Made by a program: the position numbers and the translations under genes
Part shown: piece by piece, positions 53,783-60,537 of the stretch
Position numbering within the stretch: the first letter of the stretch is position 1
How the letters are laid out: each line of letters starts with the position of its first letter
The notes under the pieces: model-generated
The model's database searches: none
Told to the model about the DNA's origin: nothing
What the model saw: the letters and a program-made list of their open reading frames with translations, nothing else
Source: Escherichia coli
GTDB taxonomy: Bacteria > Pseudomonadota > Gammaproteobacteria > Enterobacterales > Enterobacteriaceae
Length of the DNA: 60,537 bases
Direction: 5' to 3' (one strand)
Assembly (NCBI RefSeq): GCF_003334255.1
Contig: NZ_QOWU01000027.1

Positions 53783-54871
53783 ATGAATAACCGGGAAAAG
53801 GAGATCCTTGCAATTTTACGGCGTAACCCGCTGATTCAGCAGAACGAAATTGCGGACATGCTGCAAATCAGCCGTTCGCGCGTTGCGGCGCATATTATGG
53901 ATTTAATGCGCAAAGGCCGGATTAAAGGCAAAGGTTACATTCTCACCGAGCAGGAATACTGCGTAGTGGTGGGGACAATCAATATGGATATTCGCGGGAT
54001 GGCGGATATCCGTTACCCGCAATCGGCTTCTCATCCCGGTACAATTCATTGCTCAGCGGGCGGCGTGGGACGCAACATCGCCCACAATCTGGCGCTGTTA
54101 GGCCGTGACGTCCATTTGCTTTCAGTGATTGGCGATGACTTTTATGGCGAAATGCTCCTGGAAGAAACGCGCCGTGCCGGCGTGAATGTCTCCGGCTGCG
54201 TTCGTTTGCATGGTCAAAGCACATCGACGTATCTGGCAATTGCCAATCGAGACGATCAAACCGTGCTGGCGATTAACGATACCCATCTGCTGGAACAGTT
54301 GACACCGCAACTACTGAACGGGTCGCGCGATTTACTTCGTCATGCGGGCGTGGTACTGGCTGATTGCAACCTGACAGCCGAGGCGCTGGAATGGGTCTTT
54401 ACCCTCGCTGATGAAATCCCGGTGTTTGTCGATACCGTTTCAGAATTCAAAGCGGGCAAAATCAAACACTGGCTGGCGCATATTCACACCCTGAAACCCA
54501 CTTTACCGGAGCTGGAAATTTTATGGGGACAGGCGATCACCAGCGATGCTGACCGTAATACCGCAGTGAATGCATTGCATCAGCAAGGTGTTCAGCAACT
54601 GTTTGTTTATTTGCCCGATGAGTCAGTTTATTGCAGCGAAAAGGATGGAGAACAATTTTTGCTGACCGCGCCAGCGCATACGACAGTAGACAGTTTTGGT
54701 GCTGACGATGGTTTTATGGCGGGCCTGGTATATAGCTTTCTTGAAGGATACAGTTTCCGCGACAGCGCCCGTTTTGCGGTAGCCTGCGCGGCAATTTCGC
54801 GCGCCAGCGGCAGCTTAAACAACCCTACCCTGTCTGCCGATAACGCGCTTTCATTAGTGCCAATGGTGTAA
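53783..54871 (+). CDS. yeiI: YeiI, PfkB-family sugar kinase with N-terminal HTH domain (362 aa)
   Basis: ORF 53783..54871, starting 2 nt after the nfo stop. Confidence 0.9.
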   Translation: MNNREKEILAILRRNPLIQQNEIADMLQISRSRVAAHIMDLMRKGRIKGKGYILTEQEYCVVVGTINMDIRGMADIRYPQSASHPGTIHCSAGGVGRNIAHNLALLGRDVHLLSVIGDDFYGEMLLEETRRAGVNVSGCVRLHGQSTSTYLAIANRDDQTVLAINDTHLLEQLTPQLLNGSRDLLRHAGVVLADCNLTAEALEWVFTLADEIPVFVDTVSEFKAGKIKHWLAHIHTLKPTLPELEILWGQAITSDADRNTAVNALHQQGVQQLFVYLPDESVYCSEKDGEQFLLTAPAHTTVDSFGADDGFMAGLVYSFLEGYSFRDSARFAVACAAISRASGSLNNPTLSADNALSLVPMV

Positions 54872-54877
54872 CAATGT

Positions 54878-54970
54878 TGCCGGATGCGACGCTTAACGCG
54901 TCTTATCCGGCCTACAAATCAGGCAATTTCAGCAAGTAAATGTAGGCCTGATAAGCTTGCGCATCAGGCA
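54878..54970. repeat. REP elements (two units)
   Basis: GCCGGATGCGACGCTTAACGCGTCTTATCCGGCCTACAAA and inverted GTAGGCCTGATAAGC...GCATCAGGC between yeiI and nupX. Confidence 0.85.
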
Positions 54971-54977
54971 ATGACAC

Positions 54978-56228
54978 TCAAGCTAAACCAATAAAGAACC
55001 CGGCAATGGTCGCACTCATCAAGTTGGAAAGCGTCGCCGCCGCCAGCGCCCGTAAACCAAGCTGGGCGATTTCCGGCGCACGGTGTGGCGCAACCGCAGA
55101 AAACGCCCCCACCACCACCCCGATAGAACCAAAGTTAGCGAAACCGCACAACGCGAAGGAAATAATCGCCACAGTTTTAGCATCGAGAGTGCCAGCCGTT
55201 TGCAGATAGGGTGAGAAATTGAGATAAGCGACAAATTCATTTATTGCCAGTTTCTGTCCAATCAAACTCCCGGCAAGATTCGCATCACTCCAGTCCACAC
55301 CCATCACCCACGCCAGTGGAGCCAGCAGGTAACCTAAAATGGACTCCAGCGAGGCATGTTCAAAACCAAACCAGCCACCAACGCCGCCGATAATACCGTT
55401 AATCAACGCAATTATTGCAACAAATGCCATCACCACTGTTGCCACACCTGCGGCGATTTTCAGCCCGGTCATTGCCCCTGTCGCAGCGGCTTCAATAATG
55501 CTTTTTGGCGGTGTTTCGGTGAAAGAGAGGTTATTAAAGGAAACCTGCGAAGATTCCGTTGCCGGGCTTAACAGGCGGGCAAACAAGATCCCGCCAGGGA
55601 TCGCCATTAATGATGCCGCCAGCAGATATTCCACAGGCACGCCCAGTGCGGCGTAACCAATCATTGTCGAACCAGCAATCGAGGCCATGCCACTACAAAT
55701 CGCTGTAAATAATTCATTGCGATTCAGACGATCGATAAAGGGTTTGACGATTGCCGGAATTTCGTTTTGCCCGAGGAAAATGGTGGTGACCGCGACGAAT
55801 GACTCGATCTTGCTGATATTTAATGCTTTCTGGAAGATACCGCCGAGAATTCGAATTAAAATCCCCATCACACCGATGTAGTAGAGAATACTCACCAGCG
55901 CGGTGACGAAGATAATTGCCGGTAACACCCTGAAACCAAAGATAAATCCTGCACCATCAAATAAGGTATCCATTTTCGGTCCGACCAGAGAACCGAAGAT
56001 AAATGCGCTACCCGCGTCGCTGTACGCCATCACTTTATGCACGCCAAAAGCGACTTTTTCAGCGACCCAACGCCCTGGCGGTAACCAAAGCATAATGCCG
56101 CCAATCACGACCTGTAACACTAACGCCGCGCCAACGGTACGCAGGCTGATCTTCTTCTTGTTTACTGACAGTAAAAACGCAATCGTCAGCAATACCACCA
56201 TTCCCAGAACACTTCTCATGACATCCAT
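54978..56228 (-). CDS. nupX: NupX, NupC-family (CNT) nucleoside transporter (416 aa)
   Basis: ORF 54978..56228 (-); near-identical paralog of psuT in this window. Confidence 0.92.
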   Translation of the reverse strand: MDVMRSVLGMVVLLTIAFLLSVNKKKISLRTVGAALVLQVVIGGIMLWLPPGRWVAEKVAFGVHKVMAYSDAGSAFIFGSLVGPKMDTLFDGAGFIFGFRVLPAIIFVTALVSILYYIGVMGILIRILGGIFQKALNISKIESFVAVTTIFLGQNEIPAIVKPFIDRLNRNELFTAICSGMASIAGSTMIGYAALGVPVEYLLAASLMAIPGGILFARLLSPATESSQVSFNNLSFTETPPKSIIEAAATGAMTGLKIAAGVATVVMAFVAIIALINGIIGGVGGWFGFEHASLESILGYLLAPLAWVMGVDWSDANLAGSLIGQKLAINEFVAYLNFSPYLQTAGTLDAKTVAIISFALCGFANFGSIGVVVGAFSAVAPHRAPEIAQLGLRALAAATLSNLMSATIAGFFIGLA

Positions 56229-56327
56229 AGTGATTATCTCTTCATGTCATATTGGGCGACGGCTTTCTGCCCATCAGAAATAGCCAGGCCTGCATCTTGC
56301 GATACCGGCCCGGCTTGTTATCAACAC

Positions 56328-57269
56328 TTAATGGGTTTTGATGTAGCCGCGCACGCACTCTTCGACTAATCCCCAGAACCAGTCTGTATCAATAGTGATG
56401 CCGACTTTGGTATTGGCGGGCTTGCCAAGAACGCCCAGCTCGTCGCAGACGGTACGCCCATAGCAAGGGCCACTGTTGACGTCCACTTCGACGTACATCT
56501 CCTGGGTTTTAATGCCATCAGGGTTAATCAGATAACCGATGCAGGTGGCGTCGTGCACCGGGCCGCCAGCAAGGCCGTAGTTTTCGAACTGCGTTTTGAG
56601 AGTGAAGTTCATGATGTCGCTGAACAGCTCTCCGGCGGGGCCGCCTGCCCTTTCCATCCGAGCAATCACGTCCGGGGTGCAAACGGTCTGGTTGGTGAGA
56701 TCGAGGCCCATCATCACTAATGGAACGCCGGAGGTGAACACTACGCGTGCGGCTTCCGGGTCGGCAAAGATGTTGAACTCGGCAGATGGCGTGAAGTTGC
56801 CTGTACCGTAAGCGCCGCCCATTAGCACAATTTCACGGATTTTGGGCAGGATCGCGGGTTGCATACGCATTGCCACCGCGATATTTGAAAGCGGACCAAC
56901 CGGCACCAGAGTGATATCGCCATCGCTTGCCATCAGGGTATCAATGATATATTTCACCGCATGAGTGCTTTCTGCCTGGCGGGTCAGCGGCTCGAATACC
57001 GGGCCATCCAGTCCGGTTTCACCGTGAATATTATCGGCAACGATTTGTTGACGCATAATGGGCTGCGGCATCCCCGCATAAACCGGAACATTAATCTCCA
57101 GTTTCTGGCAAACATTCAGGCCATTAATTAATGTTTTATCAAGCGTCTGATTACCCGCTACAATAGTGATGCCTAATAAATCTATTGCCGGATGTTTCGC
57201 CGCCATCATTATAGCAATAGCATCATCATGACCCGGATCACAATCCAGAATAATTTTTCTCTTTTCCAT
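56328..57269 (-). CDS. rihB: RihB, pyrimidine-specific ribonucleoside hydrolase (313 aa)
   Basis: ORF 56328..57269 (-); N-terminal DxDxxxDD motif (DCDPGHDD). Confidence 0.92.
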
Positions 57270-57437
57270 TGTTTATTTCCTCTGTTTCCAGTTGCGTTAT
57301 TTTTTCTACAGCAAAGAAAATTCGACCGGGCCGATGATTGAATCTTAACAACAGCGTACGTATGCTAAATATGAGAAATCTCATAGCGGATAAACATCGT
57401 GAAAGAAATCCACAATAATGATCTTAAGCAGCAATTG

Positions 57438-58097
57438 ATGAGTGAATCCGCGTTTAAGGATTGCTTTTTAACGGATGTTTCAGCCGATACGCGGCTGTTT
57501 CATTTTTTAGCGCGTGACTACATTGTGCAGGAAGGGCAACAGCCGTCCTGGCTGTTTTACCTGACGCGAGGCCGCGCCAGGCTTTACGCCACGCTAGCTA
57601 ATGGTCGCGTGTCGCTGATCGATTTCTTTGCCGCCCCCTGTTTTATTGGCGAGATTGAGTTAATCGATAAAGACCATGAACCGCGTGCGGTGCAGGCTAT
57701 TGAAGAGTGTTGGTGCCTTGCGCTCCCTATGAAACATTACCGTCCGCTGTTATTAAACGACACGCTATTTTTACGAAAACTCTGCGTCACCTTAAGTCAT
57801 AAAAATTATCGTAATATTGTTTCTTTAACTCAGAATCAATCATTTCCGTTAGTGAATCGCCTGGCAGCATTTATATTACTCTCGCAGGAAGGTGATCTTT
57901 ATCACGAAAAGCATACGCAAGCGGCAGAGTATTTAGGCGTTTCTTATCGACATCTTTTATATGTTCTCGCGCAGTTCATTCACGACGGTTTATTAATTAA
58001 AAGCAAGAAAGGGTATCTCATTAAAAACAGAAAGCAGTTGTCAGGACTGGCGCTGGAGATGGACCCGGAGAATAAATTCTCCGGGATGATGCAGTAA
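57438..58097 (+). CDS. yeiL: YeiL, CRP/FNR-family transcriptional regulator (219 aa)
   Basis: ORF track 57399..58097; start ATG 57438 ([10 protein letters not shown]). Confidence 0.88.
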
Positions 58098-58119
58098 AAA
58101 TTATTTTCAATAGCGCGAT

Positions 58120-58160
58120 TGCCGGATGCAACGCTTAATACGTTTTATCCGGTCTACAAA
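58120..58160. repeat. REP element
   Basis: GCCGGATGCAACGCTTAATACGTTTTATCCGGTCTACAAA between yeiL and psuT. Confidence 0.8.
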
Positions 58161-58167
58161 TCGAGCA

Positions 58168-59418
58168 TTACGCCAGACCAATAAAGAACCCGGCAATAGT
58201 CGCACTCATCAGGTTGGAAAGCGTTGCTGCTGCCAGCGCCCGTAAACCAAGCTGGGCGATTTCCGGCGCGCGTTTTGGCGAAATAGCCGAAAATGCGCCA
58301 ACGACAACACCGATAGAACCAAAGTTAGCAAAACCACAAAGCGCAAAGGAGATAATCGCAATGGTTTTCACTTCCAGCGTGCCGCCCGTTTGCAGGTATG
58401 GGGAGAAACTCAGGTAAGCGACGAATTCGTTAATCGCCAGTTTCTGCCCAATCAGGCTACCCGCAAGATTGGCATCACTCCAGTCCACACCCATGATCCA
58501 CGCCAGCGGTGCCAGCACATAGCCAAAAATACTTTCCAGAGAGGCATTGGCGAAACCAAACCAGCCGCCAATTCCGCCGATAATGCCGTTGATCAGCGCA
58601 ATAATTGCGACAAACGCCATTACCACCGTCGCCACACCAGCGGCGATTTTTAGCCCGGTCATCGCACCGCTCGCCGCCGCTTCGATAAAGCTTTTTGGCG
58701 GCGTTTCGCTGAACGACAGATTTTCAAATGTGACCTGCGAAGGCTCGGTTGCCGGGCTAAGAATACGTGCAAACAAAATCCCGCCAGGGATCGCCATCAG
58801 CGATGCCGCTAACAGGTAGTCAATTGGTACGCCCATTCCGGCATAACCAATCATCATCGAACCAGCAATGGACGCCATCCCGCTACAAATTGCGGTAAAC
58901 AACTCGTTGCGATTCATGCGATCGATAAACGGTTTAACGATCGCCGGGATCTCATTTTGCCCGAGGAAAATAGTAGTAACCGCAACAAAAGATTCGATTT
59001 TGCTGATGTTGAGGGCTTTCTGGAAAATGCTGCCAAGGATGCGAATCAGCAGCCCCATCACGCCAATGTAGTACAGCAGACTGATGAGCGCAGTAACGAA
59101 AATAATCGCCGGAAGTACGCGAAAGGCGAAGATAAAACCCGCACCGTCAAACAGGACATCCATTTTCGGCCCAACCAGCGAACCAAAAATGAAGGCGCTA
59201 CCGGCATCACTGTAAGACATCACTTTATGAACGCCTAATGCCGCCTGTTCTACTGCCCATTTTCCCGGTGGGAAGTAGAGCATGATGCCACCAATAGCGA
59301 TTTGCAGCAGCAGTGCGGCTCCAACCGTGCGCAAACTGATGCTCTTTTTATTCACTGACAACAGAAATGCTATTGCCAGTAACACCACCATCCCCACAAC
59401 ACTTCTCATTATATCCAT
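58168..59418 (-). CDS. psuT: PsuT (YeiM), NupC-family putative pseudouridine transporter (416 aa)
   Basis: ORF 58168..59418 (-). Confidence 0.92.
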   Translation of the reverse strand: MDIMRSVVGMVVLLAIAFLLSVNKKSISLRTVGAALLLQIAIGGIMLYFPPGKWAVEQAALGVHKVMSYSDAGSAFIFGSLVGPKMDVLFDGAGFIFAFRVLPAIIFVTALISLLYYIGVMGLLIRILGSIFQKALNISKIESFVAVTTIFLGQNEIPAIVKPFIDRMNRNELFTAICSGMASIAGSMMIGYAGMGVPIDYLLAASLMAIPGGILFARILSPATEPSQVTFENLSFSETPPKSFIEAAASGAMTGLKIAAGVATVVMAFVAIIALINGIIGGIGGWFGFANASLESIFGYVLAPLAWIMGVDWSDANLAGSLIGQKLAINEFVAYLSFSPYLQTGGTLEVKTIAIISFALCGFANFGSIGVVVGAFSAISPKRAPEIAQLGLRALAAATLSNLMSATIAGFFIGLA

Positions 59419-59511
59419 AATGATTTTCCCTTCATGCCGGTAAACCCGGCGTCAGCGCCAGGTTTTGGTATGCTTGATGAGTACGGGCGACGGCTTTCTG
59501 CCCGTCAGAAA

Positions 59512-60450
59512 TTAACCCGCGAGACGCTGATATTCTTTGGCAATTTCGCTCGCCAGAATGGCGTTGTTGAACACCAGCTGGATGTTGGATTTCAGGCTGT
59601 CACCGCCGGTCAGTTCAGCAACGCGCGCCAGCAGGAATGGCGTACTTTCTTTACCAATGACTCCCTGAGCTTCAGCTTCAGCTACCGCCTGATCGATCGC
59701 CGCATTGATAGTGTGTTCCGGCATAGCAAACTGTTCCGGGATCGGGTTCGCTACCACGAGGCCACCGTTCAGACCGCTTTGCCATTTCACCGCCATTGCA
59801 CGGGCAATTTCGCTGGCGCTGTCGAGACGAATGCTGACGTCAAACGGGCTGGTGCGGCAGAAAAACGCAGGCAGCGCTTTAGTCTGATAGCCAATTAACG
59901 GCACACCGAAGGTTTCTAAATACTCAGTGGTTAATCCTAAATCGAGAATAGATTTCGCCCCGGCACAAACAACGGTGACATTAGTATTTGCCAGTTCTTG
60001 CAAATCGGCAGAAATATCGAAGGTATGTTCCGCCCCGCGATGCACACCACCAATTCCCCCGGTGGCAAATACTTTAATTCCGGCAAGCGCCGCAATAATC
60101 ATCGTTGAAGCCACAGTGGTTGCGCCATTTTTTCCGGCGGCAACAACAAAAGGTAAATCGCGACGACTAACTTTGGTCACGTTATGCCCTTCACGACCCA
60201 GTAATTCAATTTCTTCTTTGCTTAACCCCACTTTCATCACGCCGCCAATAATGGCGATCGTGGCAGGTACAGCGCCCTGTTTACGAATAGTTTCTTCAAC
60301 TTCAATTGCGGTCTGGGCATTTTGTGGGAACGGCATCCCGTGAGAAATAATGGTCGATTCCAGCGCCACAACCGGTTTTTTGTTTTTTAAAGCGTCCTGC
60401 ACTTCCGGGGAAATTTGTAATAATTCAGGGGAAATTTTTAATTCAGACAT
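59512..60450 (-). CDS. psuG: PsuG (YeiN), pseudouridine-5'-phosphate glycosidase (312 aa)
   Basis: ORF track 59512..60474 (-). Start trimmed to ATG at 60448-60450 (MSELKISPEL); the track's extension uses a TTG that lies inside IS1 sequence. Confidence 0.9.
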   Translation of the reverse strand: MSELKISPELLQISPEVQDALKNKKPVVALESTIISHGMPFPQNAQTAIEVEETIRKQGAVPATIAIIGGVMKVGLSKEEIELLGREGHNVTKVSRRDLPFVVAAGKNGATTVASTMIIAALAGIKVFATGGIGGVHRGAEHTFDISADLQELANTNVTVVCAGAKSILDLGLTTEYLETFGVPLIGYQTKALPAFFCRTSPFDVSIRLDSASEIARAMAVKWQSGLNGGLVVANPIPEQFAMPEHTINAAIDQAVAEAEAQGVIGKESTPFLLARVAELTGGDSLKSNIQLVFNNAILASEIAKEYQRLAG

Positions 60451-60460
60451 TCTGCGTTCT

Positions 60461-60537
60461 GGTGATGCTGCCAACTTACTGATTTAGTGTATGATGGTGT
60501 TTTTGAGGTGCTCCAGTGGCTTCTGTTTCTATCAGCT
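60461..60537 (+). mobile_element. insA: IS1 left terminal inverted repeat and start of insA (window-truncated)
   Basis: GGTGATGCTGCCAACTTACTGATTTAGTGTATGATGGTGTTTTTGAGGTGCTCCAGTGGCTTCTGTTTCTATCAGCT matches the canonical IS1 end and the beginning of insA (GTG GCT TCT GTT TCT ATC AGC = MASVSIS). Begins 10 bp upstream of the psuG ATG. Confidence 0.88.

Follow-up and report, generated by a model that had tools for sequence, protein, structure and literature searches.

A conserved leader stem-loop and recombination in the nucleoside transporter gene pair nupX and psuT of Escherichia coli

The window considered here, a stretch of 60,537 nucleotides (nt) from Escherichia coli (contig NZ_QOWU01000027.1), harbors two related genes for nucleoside transporters, nupX and psuT, that share a short motif in their leaders. 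The motif folds as a stem-loop and is found ahead of genes of this type in about nine genera of enterobacteria, and the two coding sequences recombine with each other in natural E. coli strains. The explanation we lean towards, with guarded confidence in it as a whole, is that nupX and psuT are old paralogues, that the stem-loop between the enzyme gene and the transporter gene is under selection, that its two copies in Escherichia were probably made more alike by gene conversion, and that crossovers and conversion continue in the 3' part of both genes.

The genes concerned are the following.

54978-56228, minus strand: nupX (yeiJ), 416 residues, CNT/NupC-family nucleoside transporter (open reading frame (ORF), RefSeq, Pfam on close homologues)
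58168-59418, minus strand: psuT (yeiM), 416 residues, paralogue of nupX (ORF, RefSeq, alignment)
59512-60450, minus strand: psuG, 939 nt, enzyme gene directly upstream of the psuT leader

According to the ORF list and the RefSeq annotation of identical DNA, the gene order at the E. coli locus is nfo-yeiI-nupX-rihB-yeiL-psuT-psuG-psuK. A transporter is the last gene of each of two catabolic units, rihB-nupX and psuK-psuG-psuT; in intact strains psuG overlaps psuK by 13 nt. Both transporter genes have the same orientation, with start codons 3,190 nt apart. A preliminary description of the locus had regarded them as near-identical duplicates 3.2 kb apart. The equal length of 416 residues, the gapless alignment and the direct orientation hold, but the degree of similarity was overstated: approximately 367 of 416 residues (88%) and 986 of 1,251 nt (78.8%) are identical, and third codon positions account for 198 of the 265 nucleotide differences. 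Identity increases along the coding sequence (CDS) from 0.66-0.77 in the first 200 nt to 0.78-0.85 beyond nt 900, and the longest identical runs comprise 38, 23, 21, 20 and 20 nt.

Both proteins are members of the CNT family, with a length within the typical 400-420 residues and the domains PF01773 (Nucleos_tra2_N), PF07670 (Gate) and PF07662 (Nucleos_tra2_C); the domains are precomputed assignments on homologues 88-99% identical to NupX or PsuT and on called genes of related loci. The RefSeq product name of both is 'NupC/NupG family nucleoside CNT transporter'. E. coli possesses three CNT/NupC members, NupC, NupX and PsuT, of which the latter two belong to the NupX/PsuT/vcCNT clade defined in PMC11241209. 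Weak transport of uridine and cytidine has been reported for NupX, and no uptake of uridine, cytidine or xanthosine for PsuT (PMC11241209). The published transport assays therefore distinguish the two proteins, and the paralogues differ in function.

The leaders of both genes contain the following structures.

56253-56273, minus strand: nupX leader stem-loop, U-GGGC paired with GCCC-A, 5 bp in K-12, 11-nt loop AGAAAGCCGUC (fold and covariation)
59483-59505, minus strand: psuT leader stem-loop, AC-GGGC paired with GCCC-GU, 6 bp, loop as in nupX; the stem lies 6 nt past the psuG stop codon
59442-59465, minus strand: second, terminator-like hairpin of psuT, AAACCUGGCG-CUGA-CGCCGGGUUU, immediately 5' of the Shine-Dalgarno sequence; the K-12 nupX leader lacks it
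56282-56315, minus strand: strong hairpin that follows rihB directly and adjoins the nupX motif on its 5' side, AGCCGGGCC...GGCCUGGCU, then AUUUCU (fold)

The shared motif of 28 nt, GGGCGACGGCTTTCTGCCC(A/G)TCAGAAAT, is present in two exact copies, at 56254-56281 (nupX) and 59485-59512 (psuT); on the coding strand its RNA form reads AUUUCUGAYGGGCAGAAAGCCGUCGCCC. Its presence upstream of both genes had been noted before, with a first coordinate (56245-56272) that was off by 9 nt and a second that was off by 1-2 nt. The motif was also said to lie just upstream of the start codon, which is not the case: its sense-strand 3' end is separated from the ATG by 25 nt in nupX and by 66 nt in psuT. The psuT copy starts at the final base of the psuG stop codon (59512-59514), and the nupX copy is located 46 nt past the rihB stop codon, directly behind a strong hairpin. 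The two leaders can be aligned only over the motif and over approximately 25 nt surrounding the Shine-Dalgarno sequence and the start codon; a stretch of 38 nt of the psuT leader is missing from the K-12 nupX leader and appears as a gap in the alignment. The identity of 27 of 28 positions in this non-coding DNA compares with 79% in the coding sequence. No third copy occurs in the window, even with 3 mismatches allowed (zero expected by chance), and the number of copies per genome has a median of 2 and a maximum of 3 among 5,425 E. coli genomes, which rules out a dispersed repeat of the REP (repetitive extragenic palindromic) or BIME (bacterial interspersed mosaic element) kind.

The motif folds as a stem-loop with a GC-rich stem of 6 bp and a loop of 11 nt, situated between rihB or psuG and the transporter gene. 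Where the nupX and psuT copies differ, at a single position (U versus C), the base immediately 3' of the motif differs correspondingly (A versus G). For the rihB-nupX intergenic RNA, the minimum-free-energy fold has -36.6 kcal/mol (z = -3.8). The stem is followed by AAUAUGAC in nupX and by GUACUCAU in psuT. A run of U residues behind the stem is found in none of the species, and a terminator scan lists nothing at either motif; the motif is therefore not an intrinsic terminator. Other hairpins of the leaders do resemble terminators or attenuators. In psuT-type leaders the stem of the second hairpin is rich in GC and runs into UUU(U), with a consensus structure among 11 such leaders of 7 bp and a conserved GGGUUU, and the rihB hairpin is followed by AUUUCU; the shared motif differs from these in lacking the U-run in every species. 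The conserved AAGRGA of the leaders is the Shine-Dalgarno sequence. A convincing sigma-70 promoter was found at neither leader. With Rfam 15 at a permissive threshold, no family covers either leader, the only hit there being isrJ at chance level (18.9 bits versus a gathering threshold of 37, E = 5.7).

Two further candidates in the leaders were rejected. An upstream open reading frame, AUGAAGGGA..., overlaps the start codon; its AUG is missing from K. spallanzanii and Leclercia and hence not conserved. The E. coli sequence also permits a competing hairpin UUUCUG/CAGAAA in place of the GGGC/GCCC stem; a complementary segment upstream is likewise present in Superficieibacter (CUGACU/AGUCAG), whereas Leclercia has none and Citrobacter a partial one, and this pairing was not adopted. 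We also note a length difference of 12 nt in the part of the nupX leader that separates the stem-loop from the Shine-Dalgarno sequence: K-12 (window 56229-56253) has the shorter form and strain SCPM-O-B-8794 (locus L004, 2964-3000) the longer one (AUAACGGGAUCAGACCUGACAUG), which is similar to the leaders of nupX in Buttiauxella and Kluyvera.

The conservation of the stem-loop was assessed in leaders taken from loci found by protein similarity. An initial scan of genome contigs gave 8 close relatives among the 80 loci listed, and further orthologues were obtained by protein look-ups, yielding 19 NupX/PsuT-type genes. A stem-loop is present upstream of all 19, namely in Escherichia (coli and albertii), Citrobacter (three species), Klebsiella (michiganensis and spallanzanii), Enterobacter, Leclercia, Kluyvera, Buttiauxella, Superficieibacter and Entomohabitans. 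It is kept behind either upstream gene, rihB or psuG, while the surrounding leader sequence diverges. Beyond this group it was not detected: a homologue of 72% identity with a different leader sequence lacks it, and a covariance-model search of approximately 70 loci of more distant CNT genes returned no further instances. The preliminary description had named a failure of the motif to recur in orthologues as evidence against a shared leader element. The motif does recur: orthologues of nupX and of psuT in about nine genera have it, with compensatory changes in the stem, which argues for a selected element that was included in the duplicated unit.

The stem has a consensus of RY-GGGC / GCCC-RY, and the 11-nt loop usually reads AGnnnGCnGUC, with AGAAAGCCGUC, AGUUUGCCGUC, AGUAAGCGGUC and CGUUUGCGGUU as variants across the copies. 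In an ungapped alignment of 21 distinct copies, 95.2% of the cells of the 6-bp stem are paired, compared with 88.4% in shuffled alignments; none of 500 shuffles reaches the observed value, and sliding the partner columns as a control leaves just 33-54% paired. The covariation score of the stem is 0.306, versus 0.183 +/- 0.024 in shuffles, and is likewise reached by 0 of 500. Three stem pairs change on both sides (AU/GC/GU, CG/UA/UG and GC/AU), so that within this sample of 21 related sequences the 6-bp stem qualifies as a conserved RNA secondary structure. Six cells contain wobble pairs, all of them G-U on the coding strand, and A-C cells, which would give G-U on the opposite strand, do not occur. 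The psuT copy of the phylogroup-B2 type carries two substitutions (GAC to GGU), both of which remain paired as G-U. The restriction of the G-U wobbles to the sense strand favors a structure formed by the sense RNA over a palindrome in DNA.

The same observation bears on a reading of the motif as a palindromic DNA operator (GGGC-N11-GCCC), bound by YeiL, of the CRP/FNR family, or by YeiI, a helix-turn-helix domain fused to a PfkB kinase, and belonging to an internal promoter of the transporter gene. The sequence is indeed an imperfect inverted repeat, and regulator genes adjoin many of these loci. However, sense-only G-U pairs mean that the symmetry is broken at the level of DNA, the bases of the half-sites vary even within one Enterobacter genome (GGGC versus AGGC), and the leaders have the lack of a convincing sigma-70 promoter mentioned above. 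Moreover, no similar site exists in the yeiL-rihB or psuK upstream regions, yeiL is not located beside psuT in Leclercia, Citrobacter and K. michiganensis, and yeiI is not located beside nupX in Buttiauxella and K. spallanzanii. We consider an operator decidedly unlikely.

It is somewhat less improbable, yet still doubtful, that the motif has no function of its own and is a leftover of the duplication, with its E. coli copies kept alike through conversion between the two leaders. The loop and the 5' flank are the same in nupX and psuT of E. coli, the nupX-type leaders of other genera differ in both, and gene conversion between the two genes does occur (see below). A mere leftover is difficult to reconcile with a stem-loop ahead of both paralogues in about nine genera despite flanks that cannot be aligned, and with stem pairs that covary and stay paired. 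In Enterobacter, the two copies of one genome have very different loops and both retain the stem; conversion is therefore not what preserves the stem there. Judged from these comparisons of sequence, the stem-loop is a structure under selection, acting on the sense strand, placed at the junction of enzyme and transporter genes, devoid of a terminator tail and dedicated to this clade of transporters.

The age of the duplication can be read from the proteins. NupX/PsuT proteins of Escherichia, Citrobacter, Klebsiella, Enterobacter, Leclercia, Kluyvera, Buttiauxella, Superficieibacter and Entomohabitans cluster by gene context (rihB-linked or psuG-linked) and not by genus, and seven residue positions, all of them up to residue 308, are specific to the context. 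The clustering by context implies that the duplication predates the split of these genera; as far as sequence comparison can tell, nupX and psuT are old paralogues. The duplicated unit would have begun at the stem-loop just 5' of the ribosome-binding region of the transporter gene, and the stem-loop would have been retained in both lineages. In E. coli nupX, the loop and the 5' flank ATTTCT agree with psuT-type leaders and not with the nupX-type leaders of other genera. As the identity of 27 of 28 positions exceeds what the element needs, and as the loop and flank of E. coli nupX are psuT-like, a short conversion tract in Escherichia is plausible; such an event between the leaders in the Escherichia lineage probably contributes to the high identity.

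The presence or absence of genes was compared across genera. The two modules are arranged as psuT-yeiL-rihB-nupX-yeiI in E. coli, Kluyvera and Entomohabitans, and as yeiL-rihB-nupX-psuK-psuG-psuT in Enterobacter. Only one module is found in several other species, namely psuKGT in E. albertii, Citrobacter, K. michiganensis and Leclercia, and rihB-nupX in Buttiauxella and K. spallanzanii.

With respect to function, the stem-loop most likely acts in the mRNA, as an intercistronic structure with an effect on stability or processing. It would act as a barrier to decay or as a determinant of processing and may thereby set the amount of transporter message relative to the enzyme message, in psuT-type leaders together with the second, weak terminator-like hairpin. 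Intercistronic stem-loops with such roles are known, for example the REP hairpins of malE-malF in E. coli and the hairpins of the puf operon in Rhodobacter. Like these, the motif is GC-rich, has no U-tract, is located between an upstream cistron and a cistron for a membrane protein, and is conserved in structure more than in sequence. Unlike these, it is not dispersed, with two copies per genome, and its loop is partly conserved.

The loop could also point to a more specific role. Positions G21 and U22 of the alignment (A3), near the 3' end of the loop, are invariant, and G14 and G18 nearly so. The stem-loop could accordingly be a dedicated regulatory RNA of NupX/PsuT-type genes, a protein site or a ligand sensor that is read by a specific protein or metabolite (e.g. 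reporting the availability of nucleosides or pseudouridine), controls how much transcript reaches or retains the transporter cistron, and possibly acts on the downstream terminator-like hairpin. That a hairpin of this kind lies between the motif and the ribosome-binding site in psuT-type leaders, and that the element is dedicated to nucleoside-transporter genes, would fit such a role. Several observations do not: the element measures only approximately 23 nt and its loop is otherwise variable; the loop of the Enterobacter nupX copy, GAUCCCGGGUU, continues the pairing, such that the element becomes one continuous stem of 12 bp closed by a triloop; we found no competing pairing with the terminator hairpin that holds from genus to genus; the motif is retained in K-12 nupX though the second hairpin is lost; and the element has no match in Rfam. 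We regard a dedicated regulatory RNA as improbable, both as an alternative to an intercistronic stability or processing structure and as a proposal in its own right. If true, it would represent a previously undescribed class of cis-regulator in Enterobacteriaceae.

A number of points weigh against the explanation that we favor. Our literature searches found no data on RNA ends, half-lives or expression for either leader. The stability of the hairpin is modest, between -8 and -11 kcal/mol in most species, with -20 kcal/mol in Enterobacter nupX. A pure decay barrier would need neither the two invariant nor the two near-invariant loop positions, and a fixed distance to the upstream stop codon (6-11 nt) is kept only in the psuG-psuT context. 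The covariation sample of 21 related sequences is small, and its four GC-to-AU cells stem from one clade and thus count as one event. The conversion of the leader, finally, is deduced from few positions only.

A second line of evidence concerns recombination between the two coding sequences, for which the following features of the locus are relevant.

56328-57269, minus strand: rihB (ORF)
57399-58097, plus strand: yeiL (ORF)
56328-58097, no strand: the rihB and yeiL segment, lost upon recombination of psuT with nupX, absent in loci L093-L097
55282-55304, minus strand: 23-nt tract identical in nupX and psuT, CDS nt 925-947; psuT copy at 58472-58494
55042-55079, minus strand: 38-nt tract identical in nupX and psuT, the longest, CDS nt 1150-1187; psuT copy at 58232-58269

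Hybrids were searched for with the outer flanks (nfo-yeiI and psuG) joined as one query, such that a single joined match is possible only where the flanks lie within 2 kb of each other. Of the 5,426 complete E. coli genomes, five carry a single-transporter hybrid, namely strains EH10-18-47, CFSAN004176, E203449, 11PC and SY019, with one IS1-mediated case excluded. Their loci (L093-L097) consist of nfo-yeiI, one in-frame CNT gene of 1,251 nt, and psuG-psuK; rihB and yeiL are gone. The rihB-yeiL segment is otherwise present in 5,419 of the 5,426 genomes and single-copy in nearly all. Each hybrid is psuT-like in its 5' part and nupX-like in its 3' part, with one switch at the paralogue-diagnostic sites (in L093, 265 of 265 sites are consistent with this), and all five retain the psuT leader with both hairpins. 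The switch intervals all differ: CDS nt 925-959, 961-986, 1081-1121, 754-791 and 1123-end, the last of which is ambiguous in that the crossover could also lie in the downstream REP. All crossovers fall within CDS nt 754-1251, that is, the 3' 40% of the gene, and several intervals contain the longest identical tracts (23, 20 and 38 nt), with the 23-nt tract inside the interval of EH10-18-47 (CDS 925-959) and the 38-nt tract inside that of 11PC.

One chimeric copy, a clean switch and the loss of the intervening DNA are what is expected of a deletion by homologous recombination between direct repeats. The deletion of the segment between the two genes that the preliminary description had proposed is thus borne out by the five psuT-5'::nupX-3' hybrids. 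Low or patchy identity had been named as a reason to doubt it; identity is indeed low and patchy, with runs of at most 38 nt, and the deletion occurs regardless. We suggest that rare crossovers in the more similar 3' part fuse psuT and nupX in frame and thereby delete rihB-yeiL. An amplification, which was likewise proposed and would be the reciprocal product, was not found among the genomes: the junction query for the tandem duplication, which covers crossovers within CDS nt 600-1150, peaks at 85% coverage, and no genome also covers the yeiL part. The coverage of 85%, seen in 1,416 genomes, results from the similarity of the nupX 3' end and its REP to the psuT 3' end and its REP.

That the hybrids are artefacts of assembly, produced by a collapse of the two paralogues, is very unlikely. 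Three of the five records are chromosome-level assemblies and not finished 'CP' genomes, which speaks for an artefact, but an identity of 79% is too low for assemblers to collapse the copies, and the five crossover points are different. Four of the hybrid proteins recur on 29, 6, 6 and 4 independent public contigs, and for one of them all 24 contigs read show the same deleted context, psuK-psuG-hybrid-yeiI-nfo. The recurrence and the constant context indicate real lineages.

Gene conversion without loss of DNA is evident in the same part of the genes. In strain SCPM-O-B-8794, nupX equals psuT for 137 nt, and identity amounts to 95-100% over CDS 1042-1251, compared with approximately 78% elsewhere; the 38-nt identical tract falls within this conversion tract. 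In a tree of the 3' region (435 nt), all Escherichia nupX and psuT alleles group together (bootstrap 99), whereas they do not in a tree of the 5' region (330 nt). Kluyvera and Entomohabitans show the same 3' grouping with weak support. The 3' region of nupX and psuT thus has the pattern of gene conversion and concerted evolution, and conversion would homogenize this part of both genes. We note that psuT is highly polymorphic within E. coli, with 82-130 differences per 1,251 nt among K-12, LSN03-016011/A and O18, and that the differences are concentrated in the 3' half, consistent with mosaic alleles from exchange with nupX. The gene order of the E. coli hybrids is the reduced order also found in E. 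albertii, Citrobacter, K. michiganensis and Leclercia. The single-copy psuT genes of these species could be ancient psuT::nupX hybrids or not; the context-specific residues end at 308 and the 3' region evolves in concert, so that the sequences favor neither.

Both processes have known counterparts. Unequal crossover between diverged paralogues in direct orientation gives rise to fusion genes, as in hemoglobin of the Lepore type, and gene conversion between bacterial duplicates is known from tufA and tufB. The nupX/psuT pair resembles these cases in its in-frame hybrid, the loss of intervening DNA, crossovers in the longest identical tracts and patches of concerted evolution. It differs from them in that the genes are only 79% identical with a longest tract of 38 nt, and in that the reciprocal duplication was not observed.

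The locus is variable in several further respects. Repeats of the REP type follow both transporter genes:

54871-54975, no strand: two REP-type repeats downstream of nupX (alignment)
approximately 58118-58162, no strand: a single related REP downstream of psuT (alignment)

The REP-derived Rfam family naRNA4 gives weak sub-threshold matches at 54865-54912 and 58067-58154. In some E. coli lineages the nupX-yeiI spacer is 51 nt shorter and contains one REP. The repeats after nupX and psuT constitute a second possible substrate for rearrangement of the locus.

An internal deletion of approximately 1.18 kb in nupX is found in 971 of 5,426 complete E. coli genomes (18%), including Nissle 1917, the type strain ATCC 11775 and O18. 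The deleted allele (locus L001, 2960-3110) joins 22 N-terminal codons out of frame to the last 45 nt or so; its orphaned leader motif has two substitutions (AUUUAUGAUGGGCAGAGAGCC...) and an intact stem. In the window itself, the final 77 nt (60461-60537) belong to an IS1 element, of which they comprise the terminal inverted repeat and the first part. The element is inserted into the 3' end of psuK, approximately 10 nt ahead of the psuG start codon; the insertion would cut psuG-psuT off from the psuK promoter. The junction of IS1 and psuG occurs as one contiguous match in 1 of 5,426 genomes (strain 2EC1). Elsewhere in psuG, psuK or rihB, IS1 is present in several strains, in some with adjoining deletions (e.g. 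strain 8600, locus L003). A chromosomal-type yeiL-psuT-psuG-psuK segment is also carried on six large plasmids (185-303 kb). The one inspected, NZ_CP064017.1 (locus L100, 21135-25115), is a conjugative IncHI1 plasmid with mcr-3.1, and ISVsa5 adjoins the segment.

The paralogy of nupX and psuT and their membership in the CNT family are already known, and intercistronic hairpins, deletions between direct repeats and gene conversion are known kinds of structures and events; nothing here overturns current understanding. The leader stem-loop, the natural hybrids and the instability of the locus appear to be new: literature searches found no description of the stem-loop or of psuT::nupX hybrids, and the stem-loop is not in Rfam. 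The stem-loop provides a cheap and well-defined target for studying how bacteria set the ratio of enzyme to transporter within an operon. The instability of the E. coli locus, with its nupX deletions, IS1 insertions and capture by an IncHI1 plasmid, matters for the use of these genes as core markers and for the engineering of pseudouridine metabolism. The hybrids and conversion tracts are natural evidence that repeats of 79% identity, with identical tracts of no more than 38 nt, still yield in-frame fusions, a 3.2-kb deletion and gene conversion in wild E. coli, and the gene pair thereby calibrates how far divergence protects paralogues from recombination.

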